From: a virus
Taxonomy: Duplodnaviria > Heunggongvirae > Uroviricota > Caudoviricetes
Virus record (IMG/VR): IMGVR_UViG_2802429241_000009
Reading direction: 5' to 3' (one strand)
DNA: 39,485 nucleotides
The position numbers and the translations under genes were made by a program. Position 1 is the stretch's first letter; each line of letters opens with the position of its first letter. This document shows positions 5,100 through 32,667 of this stretch, piece after piece. The notes under the pieces were generated by a model that saw only the letters and a program-made list of their open reading frames with translations, was not told where the DNA came from and ran no database searches.

Positions 5100-5684
5100 T
5101 TATTGTTTGTTTTTTTCGTTCTGGTTGATGACAAATTCAATGTAACTTTCGATCTTTGCTTTCTCGGTTTCGGGTAACAATGCGTAGCGCGAGCGATCAT
5201 AGTTGATGGTCGCAGGGTCGTGCGGGTGAATCAGTAATTCATAGCCGTGACGCCCGAATGCGGATGCAACATTCTCCAGGGTGGAAATGGAAACGCTGAC
5301 CTCATTGTTTAACAGGCGGCTGATTGTCACCTGGGCGACGCCGGATGCGCGGTGTAGTTTTCCCTGCGTTGAAAGGTCGCGGCTTTCGCTCATCCAGCGT
5401 TCCAGGTTGTGAGCCGCCAGCTGACCAATGTCGCTAGGGCCGACAGGCTGAAAACCTTCCTGAGAAAGCGAGCGATCGATATCAAGCCAGTTACGGGGTT
5501 TATTGGCGGCAGCTTCAATTTTTCGCGCAACCTGGTCGCCGATAACCTTCTTGCCAAGAGCCCAGCGGTTTACCAGATTTGCCTGAGTTCCAAGTTTTTC
5601 AGCCATCCGCGTCTGAACACCATTGAATTCACGGTCGATCAAGTCGTTGAGATTTTGCCTGCGGACGTCCTGGATACTTTTCAT
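5100..5684 (-). CDS. Prophage repressor candidate (CI-like position, two HTH-like segments, no visible autocleavage module)
   Basis: 194 aa, divergent from the Cro-like gene; followed by an intrinsic terminator; no Ala-Gly/Cys-Gly plus Ser-Lys peptidase module recognised by eye. Confidence 0.65.
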   Translation of the reverse strand: MKSIQDVRRQNLNDLIDREFNGVQTRMAEKLGTQANLVNRWALGKKVIGDQVARKIEAAANKPRNWLDIDRSLSQEGFQPVGPSDIGQLAAHNLERWMSESRDLSTQGKLHRASGVAQVTISRLLNNEVSVSISTLENVASAFGRHGYELLIHPHDPATINYDRSRYALLPETEKAKIESYIEFVINQNEKNKQ

Positions 5685-6217: not shown

Positions 6218-6430
6218 TTGAAGATAGTAACCAGAATGGAGGCCGCAAAAGCCGGGTTAAATCGCTATTTCACAGGAAAGCGGTGCCGTCACGGCCATCT
6301 CTCTGAAAGGTATGTTCTGAACGGAACATGTGTTGAATGTGCAATGAATAGCGCCAACCGCCATCGTAATGAATTTGCTTGTGCACTAAAGAGTGCAAGA
6401 GGGGAAACCTATGGCAAGCAGCTGGATTAA
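6218..6430 (+). CDS. Small zinc-finger-like protein (putative early regulator)
   Basis: C-x-H-x-H ... C-x2-C spacing (CRHGH...CVEC); TTG start at 6218 with GGGG SD, or ATG at 6236. Confidence 0.45.
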   Translation: MKIVTRMEAAKAGLNRYFTGKRCRHGHLSERYVLNGTCVECAMNSANRHRNEFACALKSARGETYGKQLD

Positions 6431-7235
6431 GGTTGAAGTTATCACTCCTGATAAACCTGAAATTTTTCAGATAGCAGAAATTCTGGGTATTGATCCAGAT
6501 GCTGTTCTTGGAAAGCTGGTTCGTATATGGGCATGGGCTGACCAGCAAACAATAGACGGTAACGCTGGCAGCGTTACAAAAGGAGTACTTGATAGACTCG
6601 CTTTTATTACAGGATTTGCTGACGCCCTCATTAGCGTCGGATGGCTTGCTTATCATGACGGCAAACTAATCCTTCCAAACTTTGAGCGACATAATGGAGA
6701 ATCATCGAAAAAACGTGCACTTACGAATAGAAGAGTGGCAGAGCATCGAAAACGAGTAACGCAAAAAGTAACGCCAACAGCGTTACAAAAGGAGTTACCA
6801 GAGGAAGAGGAAGATATATATAAAACCCCACACATAGCGCACGTGCGCGATGGTGCTCCGACCAGTGAAGCGAACGGTATGCCGTTGCAGGTGGCTGAAC
6901 CTGAATTTCTGGATGGCCTGAGTGAACCCATCGGGAAATTTCCGATGACCGATGGCTGGCATCCGTCGCCGGATTTTCGACGGCGTGCTGCGCTGTGGGG
7001 AACGGCCCTGCCGGAACCGGAATTTACACCTGCTGAACTTGCTGCATTCCGGGATTACTGGATGGCTGAGGGCAAAGTGTTCACGCAGGTTCAGTGGGAA
7101 CAAAAATTCGCCAGGCACGTAAATCATATCAGGGGAAAATCAAAAAACGCCGGGAAAAGCGATGAGCTTGACTGGAATAACACTGACTGGATAGAAGGGG
7201 TGTGGGATGAAATCAACTCCAGAACTTCTCAATGA
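6411..7235 (+). CDS. Replication initiator / replisome organizer (lambda O-like position)
   Basis: 275 aa immediately upstream of the P-like gene; palindromic iteron-like repeats and an AT-rich tract lie inside the gene; start at ATG 6411 (GTG 6393 alternative). Confidence 0.65.
   Translation: MASSWIKVEVITPDKPEIFQIAEILGIDPDAVLGKLVRIWAWADQQTIDGNAGSVTKGVLDRLAFITGFADALISVGWLAYHDGKLILPNFERHNGESSKKRALTNRRVAEHRKRVTQKVTPTALQKELPEEEEDIYKTPHIAHVRDGAPTSEANGMPLQVAEPEFLDGLSEPIGKFPMTDGWHPSPDFRRRAALWGTALPEPEFTPAELAAFRDYWMAEGKVFTQVQWEQKFARHVNHIRGKSKNAGKSDELDWNNTDWIEGVWDEINSRTSQ
6559..6588. repeat. Iteron-like element 1 inside the replication initiator gene: GTAACGC-N5-GCGTTAC plus AAAAGGAGTAC
   Basis: Perfect 7-N5-7 palindrome; recurs about 209 bp downstream in a different reading frame. 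Confidence 0.55.
6768..6797. repeat. Iteron-like element 2: GTAACGC-N5-GCGTTAC plus AAAAGGAGTTAC, with an extra GTAACGC at 6756 and an AT-rich tract at 6811..6825
   Basis: Same palindrome and 3' extension as element 1 but in another codon frame, so conserved at DNA level. Confidence 0.55.
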
Positions 7236-13811: not shown

Positions 13812-13888
13812 TGGCGTGGCATGCAGGATTCGAACCTGCGACCAACCGCTTAGAAGGCGGTTGCTCTGTCCGACTGAGCTAATGCCAC
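13812..13888 (-). tRNA. tRNA-Arg (anticodon UCU), phage-borne
   Basis: 77 nt with full cloverleaf: 7-bp acceptor GTGGCAT/ATGCCAC, D-stem GCTC/GAGC, anticodon stem ACCGC/GCGGT with loop CTTCTAA, T-arm GCAGG-TTCGAAT-CCTGC, encoded CCA; close to E. coli argU as recalled. Confidence 0.85.
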
Positions 13889-14536: not shown

Positions 14537-16216
14537 ATGGCGGAAACAACTAAAGAGCGATTGAACAAACAGTTCGCACAACTTGAAAGCGAGCGTCAGT
14601 CGTTCGAGCCGCACTGGCGCGAGTTGAGTGATTACATCAACCCGCGTGGTTCCCGCTTTCTGACTTCTGAGGTCAACCGTAACGATAGACGCAATACACG
14701 AATTATTGATTCGACCGGGACTATGGCGGCGCGCACTCTCGCCAGCGGCATGATGTCAGGCATCACAAGCCCCGCGCGTCCGTGGTTTCGCCTGGCTACG
14801 CCAGATCCTGAAATGATGGATTATGGCCCTGTTAAGTTGTGGCTTGAGGCGGTGCAGAACCGCATGAACGATATGTTCAATAAGTCGAATCTCTACCAGT
14901 CTCTTCCGCAGTTATACGGAAGCCTCGGCACATACAGCACTGGTGCAATGGCGGTACTGGAGGATGACGAGGACATCATTCGCACAATGCCATTCCCTAT
15001 AGGCAGTTACTACCTGGCTAACTCACCTCGTGGCAGTGTGGACACCTGTTTTCGCAAGTTCTCTATGACTGTTCGTCAGCTTGTTCAGGAGTTCGGGCTA
15101 AATAACGTCAGCGAATCCGTAAAAAGCATGTGGGAAAGCGGCACCTACGAGAAGTGGATTGAGGTGATGCATTCGGTTTACCCGAACATTGACCGCGATA
15201 CATCGAAGCTGGATAGCAAGAACAAGCCATTCAAATCGGTTTATTACGAGGTTGGCGGCGATAACGACAAGTTGTTGCGTGAGTCCGGATTCGATGAGTT
15301 TCCAATTATGGCTCCGCGCTGGGAAGTTAACGGCGAAGATGTTTATGGATCATCATGCCCGGGTATGCTGGCGCTTGGACCTGTTAAGGCATTGCAGCTT
15401 CTCCAGAAGCGTAAGTCGCAGTTGATTGATAAAGCCACCAATCCGCCGATGGTTGCTCCGACTTCCCTCAAGAATCAGCGCGCATCCCTTCTTCCTGGCG
15501 ACATCACGTATATCGATCAGATTACTGGTCAGGATGGTTTCAGGCCTGCTTATCTGGTTAACCCCAGTACAGCAGATCTGGTAGCAGACATTCAGGACAC
15601 TCGCCAAATCATTAACAGCGCCTACTTTGTCGATCTGTTCATGATGTTGCACAACATCAATACCCGCTCGATGCCTGTTGAAGCAGTGATCGAAATGAAA
15701 GAAGAAAAACTTCTAATGTTGGGGCCGGTTCTGGAGCGTCTGAACGACGAATGTCTTAATCCTCTCATTGACCGCGCTTTCTCGATGATGGTGCGTAAAA
15801 ACATGCTGCCGCCACCGCCTGACGCGATGGAAGGCATGCCCCTGAAGGTCGAATACATTTCCGTCATGGCTCAGGCGCAGAAGTCTATCGGCCTGTCCAG
15901 TCTGGCGTCCACGGTTAACTTCATTGGTCAACTTGCGCAAGCGAAACCAGAAGCTCTCGACAAACTCAACGTTGATCAGGCGATCGATGCATTCGCTGAT
16001 ATGTCCGGAGTGTCTCCAACCGTCATTGTTCCGCAGGAACAGGTTGAGCAGGCTCGCCAGCAACGGGCACAGCAGCAACAGCAGCAACAAATGATGGCGA
16101 TGGGGATGGCGGCGGCACAGGGTGCCAAGACGCTAAGCGAAGCTAAAACTTCGGAGCCGAGTGTTTTGTCAGCCATGGCGAATGCAGTTAGTGGTCATGG
16201 TGGGCAATCACAATGA
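14537..16216 (+). CDS. Portal (head-to-tail connector) protein, T7 gp8-like
   Basis: 559 aa; Gln/Ala/Met-rich C-terminus resembles the T7 portal C-terminus as recalled; position after terminase and before scaffold and capsid. Confidence 0.75.
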   Translation: MAETTKERLNKQFAQLESERQSFEPHWRELSDYINPRGSRFLTSEVNRNDRRNTRIIDSTGTMAARTLASGMMSGITSPARPWFRLATPDPEMMDYGPVKLWLEAVQNRMNDMFNKSNLYQSLPQLYGSLGTYSTGAMAVLEDDEDIIRTMPFPIGSYYLANSPRGSVDTCFRKFSMTVRQLVQEFGLNNVSESVKSMWESGTYEKWIEVMHSVYPNIDRDTSKLDSKNKPFKSVYYEVGGDNDKLLRESGFDEFPIMAPRWEVNGEDVYGSSCPGMLALGPVKALQLLQKRKSQLIDKATNPPMVAPTSLKNQRASLLPGDITYIDQITGQDGFRPAYLVNPSTADLVADIQDTRQIINSAYFVDLFMMLHNINTRSMPVEAVIEMKEEKLLMLGPVLERLNDECLNPLIDRAFSMMVRKNMLPPPPDAMEGMPLKVEYISVMAQAQKSIGLSSLASTVNFIGQLAQAKPEALDKLNVDQAIDAFADMSGVSPTVIVPQEQVEQARQQRAQQQQQQQMMAMGMAAAQGAKTLSEAKTSEPSVLSAMANAVSGHGGQSQ

Positions 16217-16509
16217 CAGATTACGAAGATGATCAACTGAAAGAAGAAAACGCCCGTAAGCAATGTGACATGGCACAGCGTGAAATTGATGACATTCGCT
16301 TTGTCATGAGCAGTGAACAGGGGCGTCGCGTTGTCTGGTCGGTGCTGGAGAAAGGCCGTGTGTTTTCCGCTATCTCACCGATGGACGCTATGGCAATGGC
16401 ATTTAATGAGGGGCAACGCAATCTGGCGCTGGAACTGTTTCAGCGCGTTATGGCGCATTGCCCTGAACAGTATTTGAAGATGGCCAAAGAGGCCAGTGAA
16501 CAGGAGTGA
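16213..16509 (+). CDS. Hypothetical protein (98 aa)
   Basis: ORF overlapping the portal stop (ATGA). Confidence 0.5.
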   Translation: MTDYEDDQLKEENARKQCDMAQREIDDIRFVMSSEQGRRVVWSVLEKGRVFSAISPMDAMAMAFNEGQRNLALELFQRVMAHCPEQYLKMAKEASEQE

Positions 16510-16511
16510 TC

Positions 16512-17207
16512 ATGAATTTATTTGAGCGTTTGCTGTATCGCCGTCTTTGCAATGAGCAACCAGTCGATGGTGGAGCAGCTCCGGCTGCGTCAGAACCGTC
16601 AGCGCCTGCAGGTGATACCCCTGCTCCAGTTGGTGATCCATCACAACAGGAAGGTGATAAGCCACAACCTGTTGCTGATGGCGATAAACCTGCTGATGAC
16701 AAAAAGCCTGAAAACGATAAGCAGGATGGAAAAAAGGGCGGCGATAAACCAGAGGGTGCGCCTGAGAAGTACGAGTTTCAGGCTGCCGAAGGCGTAGATC
16801 TGGATACAGAAGCGTTGAAGGAATTCGAGCCGGTGGCGCGAGAACTTAACCTGACCAACGAGCAAGCGCAAAAGCTGGTTGATGCTTATCCGAAGATTCT
16901 GGCAGGTGTTCAGCAGCGCCAGGCAGAAGCCTGGCAGAAAACAACCGAGCAGTGGGCTGCGGATGTAAAAGCTGACAAAGAAATCGGTGGCGACAAGTTG
17001 ATTTCTAACCTTAGCGTCGCACAGCGTGCGCTTGACCAGTTCGGGACACCTGAACTCAAAGAATATCTGAACACCACCGGGCTGGGTAATCACCCTGATC
17101 TGGTCAAAACGTTCGTGAAAATCGGAAAGGCGATGTCTGAAGATGGCATGGTCACCGGTGGTAATGAAGGCCAGCGTAGTGCGGCCGAAGTGCTCTATGG
17201 CAAATAA
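16512..17207 (+). CDS. Scaffolding protein candidate
   Basis: Acidic, Pro/Ala/Asp/Lys-rich low-complexity N-terminus; between portal and capsid genes. Confidence 0.6.
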   Translation: MNLFERLLYRRLCNEQPVDGGAAPAASEPSAPAGDTPAPVGDPSQQEGDKPQPVADGDKPADDKKPENDKQDGKKGGDKPEGAPEKYEFQAAEGVDLDTEALKEFEPVARELNLTNEQAQKLVDAYPKILAGVQQRQAEAWQKTTEQWAADVKADKEIGGDKLISNLSVAQRALDQFGTPELKEYLNTTGLGNHPDLVKTFVKIGKAMSEDGMVTGGNEGQRSAAEVLYGK

Positions 17208-17215
17208 GAGAGGAA

Positions 17216-18208
17216 ATGACAATGGCTGTTAAAGGCTTAACTGCGCTAACGCTGGCTGACTGGGGTAAGCGCGTCGATCCAAACGGGAAAGTCGATAAGA
17301 TTATCGAGCTTCTCGGTCAAACTAACCCGATCCTTCAGGATATGCCTTTTGTCGAAGGGAACCTTCCTACCGGACACCGAACCACCATTCGTTCTGGTTT
17401 ACCTTCAGCTACCTGGCGTTTGCTGAACTATGGCGTACAGCCAAGCAAATCAACCACAGTGCAGGTAACCGATTCCGTTGGCATGCTGGAAACCTATGCT
17501 GAAGTCGATAAGTCACTGGCAGATCTGAACGGCAATACCGCCGAATTCCGCCTGTCTGAAGACCGCGCATTTATTGAAGCGATGAATCAGCAGATGGCGC
17601 AGACGCTGTTTTATGGTGATTCCAGCGTTAACCCTCAGCAATTTATGGGACTGTCCTCCCGCTATTCCAGCCTGTCTGCGGGTAATGCTCAGAACATCAT
17701 TGATGCTGGTGGCACGGGTACAGATAACACCTCAATCTGGTTAGTGGTGTGGGGCGAAAACACCGTGCATGGCATCTTCCCGAAAGGGCAGAAGGCTGGC
17801 ATCCAGATGGAAGATAAAGGCCAGGTGACACTGGAAGATGCTAATGGCGGCAAGTACGAAGGCTACCGTACCCATTACAAATGGGACAACGGACTTGCTC
17901 TGCGTGACTGGCGTTATGTTGTGCGCATTGCAAACATCGATGTCAGCAATCTTTCAGAACCTTCCTCTGCCGCAAATATTGCGAAGTTGATGGTTAAAGC
18001 ACTGCATCGCATTCCAAACCGTGGCATGGGTCGCCCGGTGTTCTACATGAACCGCACTGTAGGCCAGGCTCTTGATCTGCAGTCTCTGGAGAAAACATCT
18101 CTGGCTATCAGCGTAAAAGAGACAGAAGGCGAGTGGTGGACTTCATTCCGTGGTGTACCAATCCGTGAAACTGATGCGCTTCTGGAAACAGAAGCCCGCG
18201 TGGTGTAA
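17216..18208 (+). CDS. Major capsid protein candidate
   Basis: 330-aa ORF immediately after the scaffold gene; strong SD; position-based call. Confidence 0.7.
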   Translation: MTMAVKGLTALTLADWGKRVDPNGKVDKIIELLGQTNPILQDMPFVEGNLPTGHRTTIRSGLPSATWRLLNYGVQPSKSTTVQVTDSVGMLETYAEVDKSLADLNGNTAEFRLSEDRAFIEAMNQQMAQTLFYGDSSVNPQQFMGLSSRYSSLSAGNAQNIIDAGGTGTDNTSIWLVVWGENTVHGIFPKGQKAGIQMEDKGQVTLEDANGGKYEGYRTHYKWDNGLALRDWRYVVRIANIDVSNLSEPSSAANIAKLMVKALHRIPNRGMGRPVFYMNRTVGQALDLQSLEKTSLAISVKETEGEWWTSFRGVPIRETDALLETEARVV

Positions 18209-18259
18209 CGCCTGTTATTAACCTGTGGGTCGTAACAGACCCACTAATGGAGAAAGAAG

Positions 18260-18697
18260 ATGATCACCGACAAACTGTTGATGTTCTCCGAAGCACAGGC
18301 GGTAACTGATACCGCGGCTTCTACTGACGTAATCGATCTCGGTCCAATTGATGGAAACCATCGCGATATCGGCGTGGGTTACCCGCTTGAGTTTTGGGTG
18401 CTGGTTAACGCAGCCGCCGCGGCAAGCGGTGATGCAACTGTAAACATCCAGTTGCAGACGAGTGAGAATAACAGCTCATGGACCACTATTTATGATAGTG
18501 GCGCACTGGCAAAGACCGCCCTGACAGCAGGTAAACGAGTTGTTTCTGCAAAGGTGCCTGCCGGTGTTCAGCGATATCTGCGTGTTAACTACTCCGTCGC
18601 AACTGGCCCACTAACGGCTGGCGAATTCACTGCTGGTATCAGTCTTGATGTTGATGCCAATACGCCGTATCCGATCCGCTCAAAAGTAACTGGTTAA
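18260..18697 (+). CDS. Hypothetical virion protein (possible capsid decoration)
   Basis: 145 aa directly downstream of the capsid gene. Confidence 0.45.
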   Translation: MITDKLLMFSEAQAVTDTAASTDVIDLGPIDGNHRDIGVGYPLEFWVLVNAAAAASGDATVNIQLQTSENNSSWTTIYDSGALAKTALTAGKRVVSAKVPAGVQRYLRVNYSVATGPLTAGEFTAGISLDVDANTPYPIRSKVTG

Positions 18698-18707
18698 GGT
18701 GATATCG

Positions 18708-19043
18708 ATGTCAGGTGAGAAACCAAGATACCGCGTTCTGCGCCTCTCTCATATCCATAACACACTGTGGCCTGAGGGGGCAGAAATCGAATACGAAGGT
18801 GAGCCTGGTAGCGCACTGGAACCTGTTAACGATGCAGCCAGACAGGCAAAAGCAAAAGTTGCAGGAAAGGTGTCAATGGCAACAACCAGCACCAAAATCA
18901 TCAACGATGTGTCAGATGATGGTGAACTGGATAAGCTCCGTGAAGAGTACGAATTGCTCTTTAACGAGAAGCCACACCATAACGCCAAAGCCGAAACGCT
19001 CCGCGAGAAGATCGCAGATAAGCGTAAAGAACTGGGCGTGTAA
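18708..19043 (+). CDS. Hypothetical protein
   Basis: ATG after GGTG; followed by an intrinsic terminator. Confidence 0.45.
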   Translation: MSGEKPRYRVLRLSHIHNTLWPEGAEIEYEGEPGSALEPVNDAARQAKAKVAGKVSMATTSTKIINDVSDDGELDKLREEYELLFNEKPHHNAKAETLREKIADKRKELGV

Positions 19044-19059
19044 GCCTCGCGGATCAGAC

Positions 19060-19081
19060 AAGGGGCTTCGGCCCCTTTATT
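19060..19081 (+). terminator. Intrinsic terminator after the capsid-proximal gene block
   Basis: AGGGGC-TTCG-GCCCCT followed by TTATT. Confidence 0.6.
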
Positions 19082-19093
19082 GCAGGAGTGTAT

Positions 19094-19417
19094 ATGGAAC
19101 TCGTAAACCTCAAAACCGGCACTGACAGCTACCAGGATGAGAGCGGAGAAACCAGAACTCGCGATGAATACCCGTGGGGGCTGTGCATCACGCTTAATAA
19201 CGACACATTGAATAAGCTGAAGGCGCAACCTAAGGGCGTCGGAACAGAAGTAATGATAACTGCAAAGGCTGTTATTCGAGGCCTGTCTGCCAGAGAAACT
19301 GACGATGGCGTTAATCGCAGCGCCGATCTGCAGATCACTGATATGGCGATCGCTCCTGTTTCCGGGGATGTAGAAAAATCAGCGGCTGAAACTCTGTACG
19401 GCAATGGGGGTGAGTAA
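19094..19417 (+). CDS. Hypothetical virion protein
   Basis: ATG after GGAG; 108 aa. Confidence 0.45.
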   Translation: MELVNLKTGTDSYQDESGETRTRDEYPWGLCITLNNDTLNKLKAQPKGVGTEVMITAKAVIRGLSARETDDGVNRSADLQITDMAIAPVSGDVEKSAAETLYGNGGE

Positions 19418-20022
19418 TGGCCTCTGTAGTAGAGATCTGCAATCGTGCGCTGTCCAATATTGGCAATAGCCGCAGCATTAACAGCCTGACGGAAGCCAGC
19501 AAGGAAGCTGGGGAATGTTCGCTGCACTTTGAGGCCTGCCGTGATGCTGTTCTTTCTGATTTTGACTGGAACTTTGCTACCAAACGCGTGGCGCTTGCAG
19601 ATACGAGCAATCCACCGCCTGACTGGGAATATGCGTACCAGTACCCGTCCGATTGTCTGCGCATTACTGAAATTATGCTTCTTGGTGTACGCAATCCAAC
19701 AGCAGCAATGCGCGTTCAGTACGAAGTTGGTGCAGACACCAACGGAACAGGAAAGTTGATCTACACAGACCAGCCGCAGGCATGGCTCAAGTATGTATCT
19801 CGCGTTTCAGATGTGAACATGTTTGATGCCATTTTTATGGAGGCGTTGGCCTGGCGTCTTGCGGCAGCTATTAACATGGCGCTGACTGGGAATGCAGACC
19901 TCGGTACGTTTGCCCTCAATATGTACAATCGCGTGATTCTTAGTGCTGGCTCGCATAGCCAGAATGAATCACAGGAACCACAGCCACCGGTTGACGAGTT
20001 TACCATTGCGAGGTTGTCCTGA
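19417..20022 (+). CDS. Tail tubular protein A-like (adaptor), T7 gp11-like position
   Basis: 201 aa; N-terminal pattern loosely resembles T7 gp11 as recalled; gene order. Confidence 0.5.
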   Translation: MASVVEICNRALSNIGNSRSINSLTEASKEAGECSLHFEACRDAVLSDFDWNFATKRVALADTSNPPPDWEYAYQYPSDCLRITEIMLLGVRNPTAAMRVQYEVGADTNGTGKLIYTDQPQAWLKYVSRVSDVNMFDAIFMEALAWRLAAAINMALTGNADLGTFALNMYNRVILSAGSHSQNESQEPQPPVDEFTIARLS

Positions 20023-32509: not shown

Positions 32510-32667
32510 GGCAATCACCTTTTAGTATGGTTAATCACCACCTGAGGTGCAAATCTCGTTGGTGGTGAGACGTACAGGGTTTGCACTACCGGCTAAAAGG
32601 ACCCGGCGCACCTTTCGGTGCCCCTGCACGTCCCACCATAATTCTGGCATGACTGTGCTATACGCAT

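Follow-up and report, generated by a model that had tools for sequence, protein, structure and literature searches.

A short hairpin located between the major capsid gene and the cement protein gene of a phiV10-like phage is conserved with compensatory change among its relatives, and its most likely role is that of a barrier to mRNA decay or of a processing element rather than of a terminator. A second hairpin, found at the only other sizeable gap in the same operon, is most likely a weak, leaky intrinsic terminator. The combined proposal, that both elements are RNA punctuation, with hairpin 1 acting post-transcriptionally as a barrier to decay and hairpin 2 acting as the leaky terminator, is one in which our confidence and our doubt are evenly balanced.

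The window, by which we mean the whole stretch of 39,485 nucleotides that was analysed, belongs to a phiV10-like Uetakevirus, a phage of E. coli, and the region of interest is 98% identical to phiV10 and to other Uetakevirus genomes and prophages. The gene order was obtained by mapping the phiV10 and PAS61 annotations onto the open reading frames of the window. The features to which the text refers are as follows.

14537-16216, + strand: portal gene (mapped annotation)
16213-16509, + strand: small gene (mapped annotation)
16512-17207, + strand: protease/scaffold gene (mapped annotation)
17216-18208, + strand: major capsid protein gene (Pfam GP7 family PF20911, E = 2e-149)
18209-18224, + strand: A/U-rich, single-stranded spacer of 16 nt, CGCCUGUUAUUAACCU, largely conserved in the clade alignments and unpaired in the consensus fold
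18225-18244, + strand: hairpin 1, GTGGGTC-GTAACA-GACCCAC, with a 7-bp stem (18225-18231 paired with 18238-18244) and the 6-nt loop GUAACA
18249-18253, + strand: Shine-Dalgarno sequence GGAGA of the Bbp16-like gene (ATG 18260), its columns invariant in 48 distinct sequences
18260-18697, + strand: gene for a Bbp16-family cement/decoration protein of 145 aa, homologue of epsilon15 gp8 (Pfam PF21190, E = 4e-47)
18708-19043, + strand: small gene, 111 aa, homologue of epsilon15 gp9 and named PhiV10p12 in phiV10 (mapped annotation)
19060-19081, + strand: hairpin 2 including its tail, AAGGGGC-TTCG-GCCCCTT, with the stem at 19060-19066 and 19071-19077, the core GGGGC/GCCCC and a UUCG loop (19067-19070)
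19084-19088, + strand: Shine-Dalgarno sequence AGGAG of the gp10-like gene (ATG 19094), directly 3' of the T-tract, with CAGGAG conserved
19094-19417, + strand: gene for a Gp10-like capsid decoration protein of 107 aa, homologue of epsilon15 gp10 (Pfam PF21628, E = 7e-52)
19417-20022, + strand: adaptor gene (mapped annotation)

The capsid protein shares 99.7-100% identity with its counterparts in phiV10, TL-2011b and other relatives; the start of its gene as annotated in phiV10 corresponds to 17222. The Bbp16-like protein of 145 aa matches the PDB entries 3j4u_H, a "cementing protein" (E = 2e-26), and 8cjz_B, a "Capsid Decoration Protein", and the Gp10-like protein matches gp10 in 3j40_N (E = 1e-21). 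A Pfam search with the 111-aa gp9-like protein returned no match. In the capsid of BPP-1, the asymmetric unit contains 7 CP and 7 MCP, meaning that the cement protein is present 1:1 with the capsid protein, and the cement protein is essential (PMC3863775). From the portal gene to the ejection-protein genes only two intergenic gaps reach 20 nt or more, one of 51 nt and one of 50 nt, and these are the sites of hairpin 1 and hairpin 2. Both gaps share a common layout of stop codon, 16-nt spacer, hairpin and Shine-Dalgarno sequence. The tail and ejection-protein genes that follow the adaptor are tightly packed, with overlaps or with gaps of no more than 14 nt. The phiV10 and PAS61 annotations contain no phage-encoded RNA polymerase.

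Hairpin 1 begins 16 nt past the capsid stop codon (TAA, 18206-18208) and ends 4 nt ahead of GGAG (18249-18252). Five of its 7 base pairs are G-C, and its folding energy within 31 nt of sequence is -13.6 kcal/mol (z = -3.25), a stability reached by none of 200 shuffled sequences. The tail that follows, TAATGGAG, has 2 T in 8 positions and no U-run. No longer helix around hairpin 1 is predicted, either in a 111-nt context or in the consensus fold. When the region was compared with Rfam, there was no hit at the gathering threshold, nor any at E <= 10 across 18100-19200, and hairpin 1 is annotated in none of the phiV10-type records that were examined. The element is present as a single copy, no other copy being found in the window with 2 mismatches allowed. 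A REP-type repeat family was also considered for hairpin 1 and was rejected on account of this single copy and the absence of a shared consensus. It should be mentioned that the window contains 39 perfect hairpins of at least 7 bp, compared to 13.7 +/- 3.8 in shuffled sequences, and that about 0.02 would be expected per 51-nt gap. Since 7-bp hairpins are not rare, hairpin 1 is not remarkable as such, and the case for it rests on its conservation with compensatory change.

The first-pass annotation of this DNA had reported a perfect 7-bp hairpin between the capsid stop and the next Shine-Dalgarno sequence, without a U-run, and a further structure after two more genes. The hairpin is exact in the sequence at 18225-18244, the lack of a U-run extends to 48 of 48 relatives, and the genes at 18260-18697 and 18708-19043 do precede hairpin 2. 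The accompanying division into capsid and downstream transcripts is wrong, as the genes after the two hairpins encode the Bbp16-family cement protein and the Gp10-like decoration protein, whose characterised homologues occur 1:1 with the capsid protein.

Relatives were drawn from GenBank phages, from IMG/VR and from one genome per species. The close clade was defined by a capsid identity of at least 80% and comprises 48 distinct capsid-to-cement spacers. Because a single MAFFT alignment of the 48 spacers sets the stem classes out of register, the classes were analysed separately, and the counts of G·U and A·C were made in a fixed stem register. Among these 48 relatives the stem is either maintained through compensatory and G·U changes or swapped for an unrelated G+C-rich stem, and in none of them is the stem followed by a T-run. 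The window-like class (28 distinct sequences) has a 7-bp stem in which 97.4% of the cells are paired, and the pairing falls to 15-47% when the 3' partner is slid. Three of the 7 pairs in this class show double-sided change: the base of the stem varies as G-C, A-U or G-U, pair 6 as U-A, C-G or U-G, and pair 7 as C-G or U-A. RNAalifold applied to the same class returns exactly the helix of hairpin 1 and no other helix. This class contains 6 G·U cells versus 1 C·A cell.

A Klebsiella/Kluyvera-like class of 13 sequences carries at this position a 9-bp stem of unrelated sequence, closed by a GNRA-type loop, and 100% of its cells are paired. All 16 non-Watson-Crick cells of this class are G·U and none is A·C; one stem position varies among G·U, U·G, C-G and G-C. 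Further replacement stems occur at the hairpin 1 position, namely AGCGGCCCG-GTAA-CGGGCTGCT in other relatives, AGCGGGGC/GCCCCGCT in Pantoea and GGCGGGC/GCCCGCC in another lineage, together with a version with a 4-nt loop in Superficieibacter. As a control, a perfect 7-bp hairpin within the capsid gene (18178-18195) was followed in the relatives, where it is broken by synonymous changes without compensation. A G·U cell on the sense strand is an A·C mismatch on the opposite strand or in DNA, and the object under selection is therefore an RNA helix in the sense transcript. The pattern of substitutions thus indicates that hairpin 1 is selected as an RNA structure on the sense strand, and a role at the DNA level appears unlikely. 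A comparison of whole-spacer folding energies between the + and the - strand did not discriminate between them: the clade split 25 versus 22, and the distant loci leaned slightly the other way.

The distant set consists of 82 loci from different species with capsid identities of 41-94%. The gap between the capsid and cement genes is at least 40 nt long in 44 of the 82, and in 41 of these 44 gaps there is a single hairpin with a folding energy of at most -10 kcal/mol (the strongest reaching -41). For the gaps, the median z-score is -2.4. Only 2 of the 41 hairpins are followed by a T-run, defined as at least 5 T in the next 8 nt. Strong hairpins of the same U-less type occupy this position in BPP-1 (-21.6 kcal/mol) and BcepC6B (-22.4 kcal/mol). 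The gap is shorter than 40 nt in the other 38 loci, none of which (0/38) has a hairpin of -10 kcal/mol or better, and in epsilon15 it measures 12 nt and lacks hairpin 1. Judged by these loci, a post-capsid hairpin is common yet facultative in the GP7 capsid family, and since 38 of the 82 distant relatives as well as epsilon15 manage without it, it is dispensable for this type of capsid. In gaps of at least 100 nt, the hairpin is closer to the capsid stop than to the next start codon in 9 of 13 cases. Given its location near the capsid stop in long gaps, the element is assigned to the capsid cistron, as a part of its 3' end.

The assignment to the capsid cistron has to be weighed against the reading that hairpin 1 serves the cement gene, which we consider unlikely on balance. 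The hairpin would then be a 5' protective structure, or an insulator at the ribosome-binding site that tunes the translation of cement versus capsid protein, either by holding the ribosome-binding site in a defined context or by stabilizing a processed message of the cement gene. In agreement with such a role, the distance from the stem to GGAG is 4 nt in 48 of 48 clade sequences (as read by eye), despite stems that vary from 7 to 9 bp and loops that vary from 4 to 6 nt. It is noted that this constant distance from hairpin 1 to the Shine-Dalgarno sequence agrees no less with a function in the translation of the downstream gene than with a barrier to decay. The Shine-Dalgarno sequence is also predicted to pair with codons 9-10 of the cement gene (UUCUCC), and the first 10 codons of that gene have a synonymous variation of 0.10 compared to a mean of 0.61 in the remainder. 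However, the first 10 codons of the capsid gene are equally constrained (0.13 versus 0.73), so that low early variation is better viewed as a general trait of the starts of highly expressed genes than as evidence for a composite element, and the helix between the Shine-Dalgarno sequence and its complement is invariant and hence without support from covariation. A composite element made of hairpin 1, this helix and the early codons was accordingly rejected as having no specific support. Against a function for the cement gene, moreover, the hairpin lies anywhere between 6 and 201 nt ahead of the start codon in the distant relatives, and it keeps to the capsid stop where the spacers are long.

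It is decidedly unlikely, in our estimate, that hairpin 1 is a weak terminator or pause site lacking a U-run, at which a step-down in transcription sets the ratio of capsid to downstream message. In favour of this reading, it is a G+C-rich hairpin right behind the most highly expressed gene, where T7-like phages and phiX174 (T_F) have terminators, and a T-rich tail does follow the hairpin in a few distant relatives (for example, loci L095 and L151). However, of the features of an intrinsic terminator, hairpin 1 has the G+C-rich stem-loop past the stop codon but not the U-rich tract, which is missing from all 48 clade sequences and from 39 of the 41 distant hairpins. As E. coli RNA polymerase needs the U-tract for intrinsic termination, the clade-wide absence of a U-run disfavours such termination at hairpin 1. 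A terminator score of the d'Aubenton-Carafa type, with the 5-bp G+C core used for hairpin 2, gave -35 for hairpin 1 and a weakly positive +7.4 for hairpin 2. A scan with a generic terminator consensus listed neither of the two. In addition, the gene behind hairpin 1 encodes the cement protein. As this protein is essential in BPP-1 and needed there 1:1 with the capsid protein, it would be counter-productive to place a strong terminator, or a step-down in transcription, between these genes.

A broader proposal would make hairpin 1 a member of a widespread and uncatalogued class of U-less post-capsid hairpins, present in GP7-family podoviruses across the Proteobacteria and having a specific regulatory job beyond the blocking of exonucleases, and we regard it as very doubtful. 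Candidate jobs for such a class include a factor-dependent attenuator and translational control of the capsid-to-cement ratio through the fixed 4-nt spacing. Least probable is that hairpin 1 has no function of its own, being a decayed terminator, a DNA-level palindrome (for recombination or for the binding of a protein) or a product of chance: its absence from epsilon15 and many relatives and the 39 perfect 7-bp hairpins of the window would fit, but the compensatory substitutions and whole-stem replacements at a fixed position, the asymmetry of G·U versus A·C that points to sense-strand RNA and not to duplex DNA, the loss of the coding-region control hairpin, and the single copy, which leaves no repeat family, all speak against it.

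Hairpin 2 starts 16 nt past the stop codon of the gp9-like gene and combines a G+C-rich stem-loop with a U-rich tract. It folds with -12.7 kcal/mol (z = -2.87), and 2 of 200 shuffled sequences are as stable. The T-rich tract TTTATT (19076-19081) contains 5 T in 6 positions and is an interrupted run. The failure of the consensus scan to list hairpin 2 is apparently caused by the extension of the stem, which consumes two T's of the T-run. The stem GGGGC-TTCG-GCCCC, the T-rich tail and CAGGAG are kept in more than 50 distinct relatives, among which extended or compensated variants such as GGGGGC/GCCCCC, GGGGCC-GGAT-GGCCCC-TTTTTTT and GGAGGCC-GGTT-GGCCTCC-TTCTTTTT are found, and in the Pantoea relatives the tail is a full T-run (TTTTTTT). 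At the homologous gp9/gp10 junction of epsilon15, the RefSeq record carries an annotated rho-independent terminator (NC_004775, stem_loop 7664-7686). BPP-1 has a canonical terminator, CGGGGGC-TTCGT-GCCCCCG-CTTTTTCTT, after bbp15 and before the tail genes. By the same score, the counterparts in epsilon15 and BPP-1 reach +2.8 and +8.2, which is similar to the +7.4 of hairpin 2. At least 17 relatives without the gp10-like gene retain the terminator, which is then directly followed by the adaptor gene, as in BPP-1.

A scan found no promoter-like site between hairpin 2 and the genes downstream of it, and read-through would consequently be needed for the expression of these genes. Taken together with the sequence features above, hairpin 2 is most likely a weak and leaky intrinsic terminator. 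The first-pass annotation had called the structure at 19060-19081 a canonical terminator; the stem, the conserved T-rich tail and the epsilon15 annotation bear out the terminator, and with an interrupted T-run the word "canonical" is slightly generous. Its other suggestion, of partial termination or RNA processing, survives for hairpin 1 in the part concerning stability or processing, which is favoured; termination is disfavoured by the missing U-run in 48 of 48 close and 39 of 41 distant sequences. It is noted that hairpin 2 precedes gp10, a major capsid component in epsilon15, and that a terminator at this point is not obviously useful for stoichiometry.

Returning to the reading that hairpin 1 is a barrier to mRNA decay or a processing element, we find in it the structural properties of an mRNA stabilizer: it is a stable intercistronic stem-loop, it lies in a co-directional operon, and it is selected as RNA of the sense strand. 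With no U-run, it would act after transcription and not as a terminator. We propose that hairpin 1 forms in the sense RNA immediately outside the stretch covered by a ribosome that terminates on the capsid gene, where it would stop 3'-to-5' exonucleases, so that decay intermediates would end at this point. The portal-protease-capsid message would be preserved while the distal sequence decays, and the level of capsid mRNA would be raised without RNA polymerase being blocked. The hairpin may also sit as a cap at the 5' side of a downstream message produced by processing. Hairpin 2 would end a fraction of the transcripts after the block of capsid, Bbp16-like and gp9 genes, and the genes for gp10, the adaptor, the tail and the ejection proteins would be expressed from transcripts that read through it. 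The exonuclease barrier, the partial termination and any effect on the ratios of transcripts or proteins are what we infer from these features; a search of the literature turned up neither a transcriptome of a Uetakevirus or BPP-1-like phage nor other transcript data on a Uetakevirus.

What weighs against a decay barrier is the modest strength of the stem: among structures known to stall PNPase or RNase II, one of 7 bp and about -13 kcal/mol ranks low. Two specific routes of processing were also considered. An RNase III site of the type of the T7 R sites or lambda sib, which has a duplex of about 20 bp or more, was excluded, the stem of hairpin 1 being 7 bp long (9 bp in the Klebsiella-like class). 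A check by eye of the single-stranded stretches flanking hairpin 1 found no exact match to the RNase E motif RN|WUU.

If this account is correct, a temperate podovirus that depends on the host RNA polymerase would grade one long head operon without the use of extra promoters. It would also mean that a small RNA element with covariation in about 50 distinct sequences has been missed by annotation pipelines. The practical value is modest and may lie in the annotation of operons and terminators in Uetakevirus-like prophages of E. coli O157 and its relatives, and in a compact part for polycistronic tuning.

The grading of late-operon expression by such hairpins is a known strategy. The two elements described here are ordinary operon punctuation without a new mechanism, and hairpin 2 is already annotated in epsilon15. 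Intercistronic stem-loops that stabilize mRNA are textbook knowledge in bacteria and include REP in malE-malF of E. coli, the puf hairpins of Rhodobacter and the mRNA-stabilizing sequences of phiX174. Like these stabilizers, hairpin 1 is U-less, stable, conserved on the sense strand and located behind the most abundantly needed cistron, and, as with stabilizers such as REP, it would be expected to raise the amount of upstream message at steady state. Unlike the REP-type stabilizers, it is much shorter (7-9 bp), occurs as a single copy and has no REP consensus, and its function is deduced from its features.

In T7 and LUZ100 the capsid gene is immediately followed by a terminator (PMC10134795). 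Hairpin 1 resembles T-phi of T7 and the LUZ100 terminator in occupying this place behind the capsid gene and in its presumed purpose, which is a boost of the capsid message relative to later genes. However, a phage RNA polymerase is truly terminated at T-phi and at the LUZ100 element, whereas hairpin 1 is U-less and its phage has no annotated RNA polymerase. A further difference from the T7-like case is that the gene after hairpin 1 encodes another abundant capsid protein.

Leaky terminators are known in phages generally (PMC9163698), and in phiX174 each of the genes J, F and G is followed by a weak terminator, named T_J, T_F and T_G, respectively (bioRxiv 10.1101/2020.03.05.979765). Our two-hairpin arrangement is comparable to these leaky hairpin terminators behind structural genes, with their nested transcripts. 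The phiX174 terminators belong to another virus family and genome type, however, and their efficiencies have been measured. The closest counterpart of hairpin 2 is the gp9/gp10 terminator of Salmonella phage epsilon15, with which it shares the homologous junction, the G+C-rich stem, the tetraloop, the T-rich tail and the adjacent ribosome-binding site of gp10. Compared to that terminator, hairpin 2 has a shorter stem and an interrupted T-run (TTTATT), and the epsilon15 site is annotated as bidirectional.

The palindrome TTACCT-N3-AGGTAA, a 15-nt site, occurs nine times in the window with at most one mismatch, where 0.02 copies would be expected. Three copies flank a repressor-like gene, another precedes the head operon by about 100 nt and two adjoin the C4 and isrK RNA genes; the sites look like an operator set of a phage regulator. 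The RNA genes were called at the Rfam gathering threshold, and are listed here with the palindrome and its neighboring gene:

4966, 5028, 5740, 8021, 8083, 14211, 32781, 32874 and 33993: TTACCT-N3-AGGTAA sites
5100-5684, minus strand: repressor-like gene
13815-13888, minus strand: tRNA gene, Rfam match
32558-32643, minus strand: C4 antisense RNA, RF01695
32668-32744, minus strand: isrK Hfq-binding RNA, RF01394

The tRNA gene has the terminase gene on one side and the portal gene on the other, and lies on the strand opposite to both. In the relative PAS61 (L313) the portal is annotated at 15937-18144 of its own record, with a 5' end 528 nt longer than in phiV10 (window 14537-16216). Because this extra 5' part would span the stretch where the window carries its minus-strand tRNA, the longer portal is probably a start-codon mis-call in the PAS61 record.

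Further perfect hairpins were found inside two genes:

6559-6577 and 6768-6786: GTAACGC-N5-GCGTTAC, within the replication-protein ORF at 6393-7235
18178-18195: GCTTCTG-GAAA-CAGAAGC, 7 bp, inside the capsid gene at its 3' end

The first two, nearly identical and spaced 209 nt apart, may be origin iterons. The capsid-gene hairpin probably arose by chance, since related phages show no upkeep of it by compensatory change.

The gp10-like decoration gene (19094-19417) is missing in at least 17 close relatives, namely EC.W1-9 (L083) and 16 IMG/VR loci. These retain the weak intrinsic terminator hairpin of the gp9/gp10 junction, which there lies immediately 5' of the adaptor gene. The absence of the gp10-like gene, together with the presence of a Bbp16-family gene (18260-18697), leads one to ask which protein is the true decoration protein of phiV10-type capsids.

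Synonymous variation is strongly suppressed over codons 1-10 of both this Bbp16-like gene (0.10 vs a mean of 0.61 in the remaining gene) and the capsid gene (0.13 vs a mean of 0.73). The low-variation or pairing regions are:

17222-17251: capsid gene, codons 1-10
18249-18289: Shine-Dalgarno sequence and codons 1-10 of the Bbp16-like gene

At the latter, base pairing is predicted between the Shine-Dalgarno sequence GGAGAA (18249-18254) and UUCUCC (18283-18288) in codons 9-10 of the Bbp16-like gene. This predicted helix shows no covariation; the same pairing is predicted in the Salmonella phage epsilon15 and in several distant relatives.
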